A stretch of DNA of 64,000 bases from Saccostrea echinata (taxonomy: Eukaryota). The DNA is taken from assembly GCF_033153115.1 (NCBI RefSeq), contig NW_026889758.1, positions 42,160,001-42,224,000 on the forward strand, written 5' to 3'. The notes below the pieces were generated by a model. It was not told the origin of the DNA. It did no database searches and was given only the letters and a program-made list of their open reading frames with translations. The position numbers were made by a program, and so were the translations under genes. This document shows positions 25,201 to 28,200 of the stretch, piece by piece (positions within the stretch are counted from its first letter, which is position 1; the number at the start of each line of letters is the position of its first letter).

Positions 25201-28200
25201 TGCGGGATTTTTGATTTTTTTATGTTTTAAATAAAATTATAAGAAAAAGAGATACGCTGAGAATTTATACAAAACAACAATTATTATAGTGTTGATATAG
25301 CCATGAAAATTGTGGACTAGATATGATCATATTAGTACATGTATGTAGTATGTCAGCTTTGCTATTTTTCACCATAAAATGTAAATGCTGGTACTTGCAT
25401 GCATCAACAATTTTATCTATCTGAAACAAACCCTTATGAAAATGTCTAAACTCCACAATTTTATTACTTTTCAGTCATCAGCGTAGAAATATGAAAACCA
25501 TAAAATTTTATTTTTATGAAAGGAGACTTTTAAATTCTTACTGATTAAATGTCAAGTTTCCACCATCTATACTTATAAATTAATAAATTTTACAAATAAA
25601 CTCCGAAACGGATGCACCAGAGTTTTTACTTGCTCCTCTAAGAATACACTAGATACAATATGATGTACGTAAACTATATTTAGATTTCACTCGCAGTGTA
25701 AGTATCGTACATTAAATTAAAATTCTACTTTTATTTTCTATAAAGAGCCATGAAATAGCAAAAACGTGAGTACGGTGGGGTTTCCGGTTGGCGGATCTAA
25801 GTTTCTGGCAATTTGTTATGAAACTGACAACAATCAATCGTTTATTTATTTCATAAAACGTCATCACTGAATTATTCAATCAAAACTTGATTTAAATGAC
25901 ATAAAAGAAATAAGTTGTGATAACCGATTAAAAAGGGAAATGTGCAAATTATTTTTGTCATTCACCGATCTTGATATTGACGGAAGCTTCTAGAACATCA
26001 TATAGCATCGAGCCCGATGTTAAGAAGAAAAACATAAGAAAAGCTAATGTGTGAATGATCATTGAAATAATGGTAAATCATTGATAACACTATAAGTTGT
26101 GAATATATTTATATATCGAAAGACTATTACGTATATGTAGTAGGTTTTCCTAATAAATTTATCGGTAAAATGTGTATATATTCCTCACTACTTACATGAA
26201 AAGAGAAAACTAATGAATAAGATATTGTTCAAATACAATTAAAGCTGTAAAATTTTGTGCTTTAATCAATACATTTTTTATACAGTCTTTTGTATCAAAT
26301 ACTCGGCTTATTCATAGGGCGTTAAAAGCTAATTTTTACACAGATACTTGCGTCTTGGTTTACTGATATATATGTATGAACCTTATTGATATGTAAAAAA
26401 GGTAAAGTACATTTTTTACATATCAATAAGGTACATACATATTTATAAACCAAGACACGAGTACCTGTGAATTTTTAAACCCCCCAACCCCAACCCCAAC
26501 CCCCCGCCCCCCCCAAATCAATTTATCAGTAAAATGTGCATATTCGCTGCTTTTAATTTATCCTTGACGGAAATGAAATAAGAGCATAGAACATATCCAT
26601 AACATAGTATAACAGGTTTCACTAATAAACATCAATTAATGAAATCGTTATTTTTTCAAGTTTTTACAAAAGGGGTTGGGTGGGAAGGGGGTGGAGACGC
26701 ACATGTGGGATTTTGAACAAAGTATTTCTTCCTGCTATAACCCTGTAGGCTGTCAGTAGAAACTACAATATATTTTCTGTCGGTAGTGGTATAAATTCAA
26801 TTCTCCGCGCTTGCGCGGGATTTCAACTAGTAAGAATAGAAAGCCATTGTCTACCTTTATACCATCTACATTTGATGGAAATGAATGGAAGAAGGGTTGG
26901 GCACAACTAATTGTTTTATAAGTTAGCAAAAAGACCAGTGAAGTTCATGATAGGATGAACAACCATGGGTCCAGAAAACTATTTTAAGAGAGATTTTAAG
27001 AAGACAAATGTTTCAGTACATTTTGGAAAAAAACAACAAAAATCTAATATTTTGGGGTGATATATTTTAATGACATATGAATAAGCACTATAACATTTTA
27101 TTAAAGAAATGACTTGAAACATTAATCCACAAACATGAAAGTTTCACTGTCTATGAATTACGTGAAAAAACACAGAACATCCTTGTTGCTTTACACACAA
27201 AATTATCCACATCAGTTAGTCTTGTTAACACCTCCAGTGGATCCTCCACAGAAGAAACCTGAATCCCTGGCTGTAGAATACAAATGATTTTATGAGACAA
27301 AGTTTGGATTTCCTGTGCGGTGTTTTCTTTGAGATGTTGGTAAATTCTCTTGATGCCACAGGCTACAGATTTTCTCAGAAGTTGACTGTTATGTAGGCCT
27401 TCCTGTTCTTGTAGATGAGAAGCAAAGATTCTTGTAGACAAGCTTTGGATGTGGCACTCTGGAATTATAAGCACAATATTATTTCTAAAAAATGTTTGAT
27501 TTAAGGGAGGGGATTAAAAGAGGGGAGTACAAATAATAAGTATACAATGTATAGGCCTCATACCATGTTGTTAAGCTAACATGAGAAAGTTAGGAAAAAA
27601 TCAGTTAATTAAGAAGGAAGTCCTTAAAAGTTTCTTTTATACAAATTTCATAATAGTTTGAATCATTTTTTTTCTCTTACCATTCAAAAAAAGAAGAGAT
27701 CTTAAGGTAAAAGAAGGTAAAAATTTAGATAACCTGTTGCATTAAGCTGTTCTTCATATTTCTTGCATTTTTCAAGAAGTTTCTGCAGCTCAACTGCATA
27801 GGCTATCAGCTGCTCATCGTTCATTGTAGAGTTTTTACAATTTCTGTGAAGAAAAAAGTCAAGAAGTATTTATACCTCCACCACTTAATCACTCTAGCTA
27901 AACCATACAAAATTATTAAAGGATCAAAAGATAATCCTGGTAGATCAGAGAACATGGAATCTTTGATGTATTGGGATTAAGTATATAATTATTGAGTAAT
28001 TAGGGCAATTATGTCTTTTTCATTACTGTGGTAGAACAGGTATTATTCAACACCTTTCTTTGTAGATAACTGAGTAACTGAAGCAATAGGTGTGATAAGA
28101 TTAAGATCTTTAATAATTGTGTTCAATGGGAAACTACTCAGTTGTCTTTAAAATAATTTTAAAAAAAAAATAAAAAATTTTGTTGTATCAAATTTTTTTG

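Follow-up and report, generated by a model that had tools for sequence, protein, structure and literature searches.

A conserved two-exon gene predicted antisense within a CDAN1 intron of the oyster Saccostrea echinata, and its likely kinship with an intronless stem-loop gene branch

Anatomy of the nested gene

In the window, that is, the whole stretch of 64,000 nucleotides of Saccostrea echinata DNA that was analysed (C9:42160001-42224000), the gene for codanin-1 (CDAN1) runs on the plus strand, and a small gene is predicted on the opposite strand within one of its introns (Table 1). The exon of the host that precedes this intron carries the Pfam domain Codanin-1_C (E 7e-17). Eleven plus-strand GT..AG joints of the host (129 to 724 nt) are found in RNA-type contigs on both sides of the intron, and none spans it. 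The initial annotation had proposed that two minus-strand exons join in phase over a 275-nt GT-AG intron into 132 codons. This was borne out, as both the splice and the frame are intact and the spliced exons A and B are stop-free over all 132 codons. The GC fractions at codon positions 1, 2, and 3 of the nested gene were 0.50, 0.31, and 0.37, respectively, and that of its own intron was 0.27. A profile built without the window protein and its orthologue scored the spliced product at 79.9 bits over residues 1 to 132; corresponding scores were 57.0 bits for exon B alone, 15.5 for exon A alone, and 1.5 for the reversed sequence. Judged from sequence, the predicted nested antisense gene is more than a product of chance. 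The AATAAA signal that had been placed about 50 nt past the stop is likewise present, at a measured distance of 48 nt.

Table 1. Coordinates of the nested gene, its signals and its host intron in the window, and places of the spliced family in the genome
Feature	Position	Strand	Remark
Host intron of the codanin-1 (CDAN1) gene	24703..28342, 3,640 nt, GT..AG	+	flanking exons joined in frame
Nested gene, predicted extent	27066..27874	-	wholly within the host intron
Alternative polyadenylation signal ATTAAA	27066..27071	-	79 nt past stop; predicted
GTGCT element	27084..27088	-	enriched in family 3' regions; one site in the window gene
Polyadenylation signal AATAAA	27097..27102	-	48 nt past stop; predicted
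Coding exon B to TAG stop	27151..27458	-	rest of hairpin, linker, C-terminal helix ending C-x-x-x-R-x-x
GT..AG intron, phase 1	27459..27733, 275 nt	-	same codon position at 6/6 family places
Coding exon A	27734..27824, 91 nt, 30 codons + 1 nt	-	encodes first part of helix 1
ATG	27824	-	start of coding exon A
Initiator-like TCAC and short predicted 5' UTR	27825..27849	-	same bases readable as splice acceptor; start site inferred
TATA box TATAAATA, predicted core promoter	27867..27874	-	TATA-to-TCAY spacing recurs in family
Donor-like site	28311..28319	-	candidate; not required
Family place 1, window gene	C9		antisense in CDAN1 intron (Codanin-1_C)
Family place 2, three copies, one with in-frame stop	C9:38.32 Mb		antisense in AAA ATPase gene intron
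Family places with remaining copies	C54:58.97 Mb; C27 and C30 (duplicated block); C60:3.77 Mb; C56:8.73 Mb

The RNA-type contigs of one run (X1) leave positions 27138 to 27504 uncovered and barely touch positions 27505 to 27871. The same contigs lie on two family copies at another locus (L006) as short unspliced pieces only. The same CDAN1 intron also holds an AT-rich inverted repeat of about 130 nt at 26339 to 26469, which is probably a small mobile-element relic. A microRNA at 26337 to 26469 was considered and rejected, the Rfam matches being far under threshold and falling on this AT-rich inverted repeat.

Upstream of the ATG, the initiator-like TCAC sits 25 nt downstream of TATAAATA (27874) and overlaps the bases that also resemble a splice acceptor. 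At four of the six family places the ATG is preceded by a TATA-like box and, at like spacing, by TCAY; this arrangement occurs in 3.1% of random 160-nt stretches, odds that are overstated because the pattern was drawn after viewing these very sequences. The acceptor reported 19 nt before the ATG does exist, as a pyrimidine tract followed by CAG, and so does the donor-like site reported at 28317/28316 (at 28316). The further upstream exon that had been proposed from them, possibly reaching into CDAN1 exon 20, is probably unneeded, because the TATA box and the initiator-like site just upstream of the ATG offer another explanation of these bases.

The GTGCT element was first spotted by eye in the 3' regions of the family. 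It occurs 13 times in the 2,000 nt past the stops of five places, one of these regions being longer (600 nt) than the others, whereas 1.2 occurrences are expected (p 4e-7, corrected for all 5-mers). On the opposite strand of the same regions it was absent, and it was found twice in 3,600 nt past eight control stops. A reading of GTGCT as a microRNA site was set aside, its fixed part being only five bases long.

The spliced family in the oyster genome and in other molluscs

Seven protein searches of the genome, which give copy counts as lower bounds, found at least nine spliced-type copies at six places. At five of the six places the copies lie antisense within introns of unrelated hosts, namely genes with Codanin-1_C, AAA ATPase, Tudor, AtuA, and DEAD-box helicase domains, whereas no host was identified for the copy at C56; the Pfam AtuA domain of its host is split around the nested copy, and the downstream exons of the Tudor host were read by eye and have no Pfam match. 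We take the AAA ATPase, Tudor, and DEAD-box hosts to be NVL, TDRD12, and DDX46, respectively. The phase-1 intron interrupts the same codon at all six places, with coding exon A measuring 91, 100, 91, 82, 106, and 91 nt. Furthermore, four paralogues, once spliced and translated, are letter for letter identical to RefSeq entries that bear the label Saccostrea echinata. Five of the six copies are paired in the tree with a protein of other origin, four of them at starred 100 support and the fifth at 98/93. Since the copies thus pair with their own orthologues elsewhere, they would predate the oyster radiation. Recent pairs of paralogues showed dN and dS of 0.042 versus 0.104 and of 0.013 versus 0.049, values that rest on few changes.

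Several copies and their surroundings deserve mention in their own right. The third copy in the AAA-ATPase host (L003, C9:38327859-38328462, plus strand) has an in-frame TAG in exon B and is a young pseudogene or a null allele. In the same host, the start of an exon and its acceptor are tandemly duplicated at C9:38317978-38318082 (L002:132-236), leaving two near-identical acceptor sites. An AtuA-family gene and the gene nested in it lie in a block of about 28 kb that is present twice, at C27:2.09-2.12 Mb and C30:2.40-2.43 Mb, with 90 to 99% identity; this is either a segmental duplication or an unmerged haplotype. A divergent member at C56:8722800-8730500 (plus strand) has an intron of 7.2 kb at the position common to the family and ends in an acidic tail instead of the C-terminal helix; it branches beside the intronless group described below. 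Just upstream of the DEAD-box host, an intronless multi-RRM gene of 555 codons lies at C60:3753328-3754992 (plus strand).

The best match of the window protein is the Crassostrea virginica protein XP_078315642.1 (LOC144620006, 132 aa), with 51.5% identity over residues 1 to 132 (E 2e-43). The identity extends over both exons (15 of 30 residues in exon A and 53 of 102, ungapped, in exon B), so the conservation of the frame in another species, which the initial annotation had named as a check, is found over the full length. The tree pairs the two proteins (support 100/100), whose branches are of similar length (0.48 and 0.40), and XP_078315642.1 is likely the orthologue. The C. virginica orthologues of the window gene and of the copy in the AAA-ATPase host lie on records of equal length, just as both genes lie on C9 in Saccostrea echinata, an indirect hint that the orthologue may occupy the same host intron. 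An HMM made from six exon-B translations matched 62 representatives at E<=0.001 among 1.84 billion proteins. Names were looked up for 30 of the 62, and many matches are nameless; one of the 62 (P0059) is, by inspection, an unrelated repeat protein. All species labels are of molluscs (Saccostrea, Crassostrea, Magallana, Ostrea, Mytilus, Pecten, Mizuhopecten, Pinctada, Mercenaria, Dreissena, Lottia, and Haliotis), and a separate search added a member from Mya. The named relatives, bivalve and gastropod, are all labelled uncharacterised or hypothetical (e.g., Pecten LOC117328993 and Lottia LOTGIDRAFT_230035). They belong to the same family as the window protein and are themselves without function, family name, or Pfam domain. 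The loose likeness to uncharacterised mollusc proteins with an LR(L/K)SVxxGxxxxY motif that the initial annotation had suggested is supported, as the L-R/K-S-V-x-x-G motif is found in these relatives. Some orthologous frames stop after a final R-S-S (P0011, P0091, P0095, P0096, and P0109) and some run on (P0087 and P0110); this difference among the orthologues of the window gene is a stop-codon polymorphism. A word-based protein search with exon B returned no match from one candidate, and none of 194 candidate stretches in a metagenome scan was confirmed as an orthologous locus.

Three other accounts of the window gene can be weighed on this evidence. According to one of them, the gene is the accessory open frame of a transposon, and the copies, having moved between introns while keeping their own intron, would indeed need movement at the DNA level. 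However, no match to a transposon accessory frame, which had been named beforehand as the finding that would speak against a gene, was obtained. A 1.5-kb stretch has a single DNA match in the genome, namely itself (in a search that passes over very common words), the gene has no long terminal inverted repeats on its flanks, every copy is paired with an orthologue of another species, and Pfam gives no match, so that this account is largely refuted and has next to no claim left. It is also conceivable, with a very small probability, that the copy in the window is intact but silent in Saccostrea echinata, a gene at the start of decay. HMM and protein database searches found no protein identical to the window product, and because four paralogues do have named models, the window copy may be silent or merely unannotated. 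Its clade sits on a long branch, and one paralogue already has an in-frame stop. Against this, the frame, the splice sites, the TATA box, and the poly(A) signals are all intact, the branch is about as long as the one leading to the annotated orthologue, and the C-terminal C-x-x-x-R is retained. Slightly less probable still is a transcript whose start lies further upstream, which uses the 28316 donor and overlaps CDAN1 exon 20, and which would in addition regulate its host in cis as antisense RNA. Both splice-like sites are present, and an acceptor-like site likewise precedes the ATG of the copies within the AAA-ATPase host. However, the TATA box and initiator-like site account for the same bases, such an acceptor-like site is seen at only two of the six places and is lacking at the other four, and five unrelated hosts speak against host-specific control.

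Predicted fold and the intronless stem-loop branch

An AlphaFold model of the C. virginica orthologue, made from a 50-sequence alignment led by that orthologue and not by the window protein, has helices at residues 2 to 46, 50 to 92, and 116 to 131 (pLDDT 89.8), the region after residue 92 being a 23-residue linker followed by one short helix. An amphipathic helical-bundle protein had been envisaged; its helical nature is upheld by the model, whereas the bundle gives way to a hairpin of two helices followed by a short tail helix. In the spliced branch, conservation is highest at the C-terminal C-x-x-x-R, and no catalytic motif is evident in the window protein. Pfam gives no family for the pieces of the window gene or for the orthologue, and only scattered weak matches among sets of 6, 50, and 49 members (the first 25 families listed for the latter two). 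A search of the PDB by sequence gave nothing under E 0.05, with no histone among the matches listed, and Foldseek against the PDB and viral models gave nothing at E<=0.001. The VIA structure search returned generic hairpins only (Z up to 12.2). A likeness to the HR1 Rho-binding repeat was considered and dropped, as this repeat is absent among the Pfam families listed.

A search with a scallop relative revealed a distant, intronless group, for which 116 matches are listed in the genome. By row count, at least 82 copies spaced about 1,571 nt apart form a tandem array at C1:36,040,000-36,182,400 (minus strand); at least 21 more array copies lie on C296 (array loci L054 and L119), and 13 are dispersed elsewhere. 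The array unit that was examined holds a 116-aa hairpin-protein frame, an Rfam Histone3 (RF00032) stem-loop that scores 35.1 bits against a threshold of 34, and a 5S rRNA gene; in this sister branch the stem-loop is followed by a purine-rich downstream element. The RF00032 threshold is reached in two of the 13 dispersed intronless copies, and the two-branch picture is not clean for that reason. A hairpin pattern within 200 nt past the stop was seen in nine of 16 metagenome loci, two of them incomplete, and not once in 528 kb of background; Rfam placed none of the 16 metagenome loci at its threshold and five of 14 below it at E<=0.01. None of the five nested spliced loci scanned has an RF00032 stem-loop. 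With its intron and AATAAA, the window gene is unlike an intronless, stem-loop, histone-type gene. One member of the stem-loop group (L116, C28:1568850-1569960, plus strand) lies in two pieces about 660 nt apart, owing to an intron at another position or to a broken copy.

The AlphaFold model of the intronless protein has helices at residues 2 to 47 and 50 to 89. An hhalign comparison of the spliced and intronless profiles gave a probability of 95.9% and E 5.4e-9 over 69 ungapped columns. On the spliced-branch profile, 48 of the 49 intronless proteins reached at least 20 bits and reversed ones did not exceed 1.2 bits, whereas only 11 of 51 spliced-branch proteins reached 20 bits with the intronless-branch profile. 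Majority residues common to both branches are L13, A23, Q26, I27, L30, L37, R59, V62, G65, Y70, Y73, K77, V81, and L84, which fall in both exons. In an unrooted tree, 23 spliced-type rows, of which those from databases are labelled spliced by inference, separate from 22 intronless rows at 100/99; near-duplicates (L106, L110, the C30 copy, and two C9 copies), the split locus L116, and five metagenome loci were excluded from it. From these comparisons of sequence and profile, the spliced nested family is likely a polyadenylated sister branch of the intronless stem-loop family.

Two further readings concern this kinship and the fold. The nested family could be real and its likeness to the stem-loop family a convergence of two helical hairpins, since long amphipathic hairpins may look alike without kinship and in the fold searches numerous unrelated hairpins do score about as well. 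A shallow profile made from the window protein's own orthologues found no match in the stem-loop branch (0.2%), the window protein reached only 13.5 bits on the intronless profile, and a long branch parts the two groups. On the other hand, the ungapped alignment of the two branch profiles, the 14 shared majority residues across both exons, the turn at the same place in both predicted models, and the near-zero scores of reversed controls all favor common descent, and we regard convergence as unlikely. Less likely again is that the protein is a cut-down ESCRT-III subunit, whose hairpin stacks into membrane polymers or caps ESCRT-III filaments. The long antiparallel hairpin of about 90 residues is shared with ESCRT-III, PspA, and Vipp1 (rmsd 1.1 to 1.7 A over 79 to 94 residues for CHMP4B, Snf7, and Vipp1). 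Vipp1 and PspA stand in the top Foldseek rows (best E 0.1), Snf7, CHMP4B, and Vipp1 are among the VIA rows (Z 10.9 to 11.7), for the Lottia relative the Atlas features point to Snf7 at 0.86, and many intronless proteins combine a basic hairpin with an acidic tail. However, no sequence or structure score is significant. All of them are under the tools' own bars and are equalled by unrelated hairpins, IpaB, prefoldin, and SMC arms among them, a hairpin of this kind being common to many unrelated proteins, and the Atlas matches share 162 to 167 features, fewer than the 170 typical of true members. The ESCRT-III (Snf7) core has further helices after the hairpin, which the predicted fold lacks, and Snf7 (PF03357) is absent among the Pfam families listed for the 50 and 49 members.

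Proposed explanation and relation to known systems

The reading we consider probable is that of a conserved two-exon gene with its own TATA promoter and a polyadenylated message, encoding a coiled-coil partner and belonging to a dispersed sister of the histone-stem-loop branch. The TATA promoter would drive a short spliced, polyadenylated message against the direction of the host. Because every copy kept the intron, the copies may have spread by duplication at the DNA level and, each having an orthologue of its own, may have done so before the oysters diverged. Introns in the opposite orientation could be tolerated landing sites, as splice and poly(A) signals would stay out of the host transcript there. 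The protein, going by its modelled fold, may work through coiled-coil contacts and not through catalysis.

What such a gene is for can be approached by analogy. As with replacement histones, the branch might supply a protein variant outside the bulk replication-coupled route and, as with the nested genes of Drosophila, its expression might be narrow, most plausibly in germ cells or eggs. That the branch supplies such a variant under GTGCT control and within a narrow range of cells, most plausibly germ cells or eggs, is the weakest step of the explanation, and on these analogies we hold it to be doubtful. More tentative by a small degree is the wider suggestion that a non-histone mollusc family copies the two-tier design of histone genes, the window gene being one of the replacement variants of an unrecognised chromatin or cell-division protein. 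The bulk tier would then be intronless, in tandem with 5S rRNA genes, and processed at the histone stem-loop; the replacement tier would be spliced, polyadenylated, under shared GTGCT control, and parked antisense in the introns of other genes.

Nested antisense genes are of a known kind, and the orthologue is already annotated as an uncharacterised protein. Of the nested genes of Drosophila, 71% are reported to be on the opposite strand, and their expression to be narrow and testis-enriched (PMC3814207); nesting is described as typically arising from young RNA-mediated duplicates (PMC5174743). The Drosophila and mammalian cases likewise place a small gene with few introns within an intron of a larger gene on the opposite strand (PMC3814207, PMC5174743). 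The oyster family differs from them in that it is nested as a whole (five of six places, in five unrelated hosts), its copies are old, and the intron is kept. An old gene family lying antisense in unrelated hosts with its intron kept would depart from the usual retrocopy route, and the nested family could serve as a natural test of why nesting persists.

Histone genes are described in PMC1924863 as the only ones known to end in the 3' stem-loop. With histones and their replacement variants (RF00032; PMC1924863) the oyster genes share a plan of two parts, a multicopy intronless hairpin branch with a purine-rich stretch and a dispersed branch with poly(A) signals and no hairpin. In contrast to histones, both predicted oyster models are two-helix hairpins and not the histone fold, and processing by SLBP and U7 would apply by analogy only. 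Linkage of 5S genes is reported with U2 snRNA in Crassostrea and with histone genes in Mytilus (PMC6204057). Our literature search, which covered few subscription journals, found no description of the family, its nesting, or a 5S-linked hairpin-protein array, and none of the searched terms occurs in bioRxiv 10.64898/2026.10.14.759114.

If both the nesting and the sister-branch link hold, the two branches would make it possible to test directly whether a non-histone protein is served by the histone mRNA pathway, and they would constitute a system of variants alongside that of replacement histones. GTGCT, in turn, could provide a concrete handle on the control of the family. Besides the 3' regions, this element occurs upstream in the intronless branch, in five of 11 stretches of 100 nt, and twice past the stop of the Tudor host.
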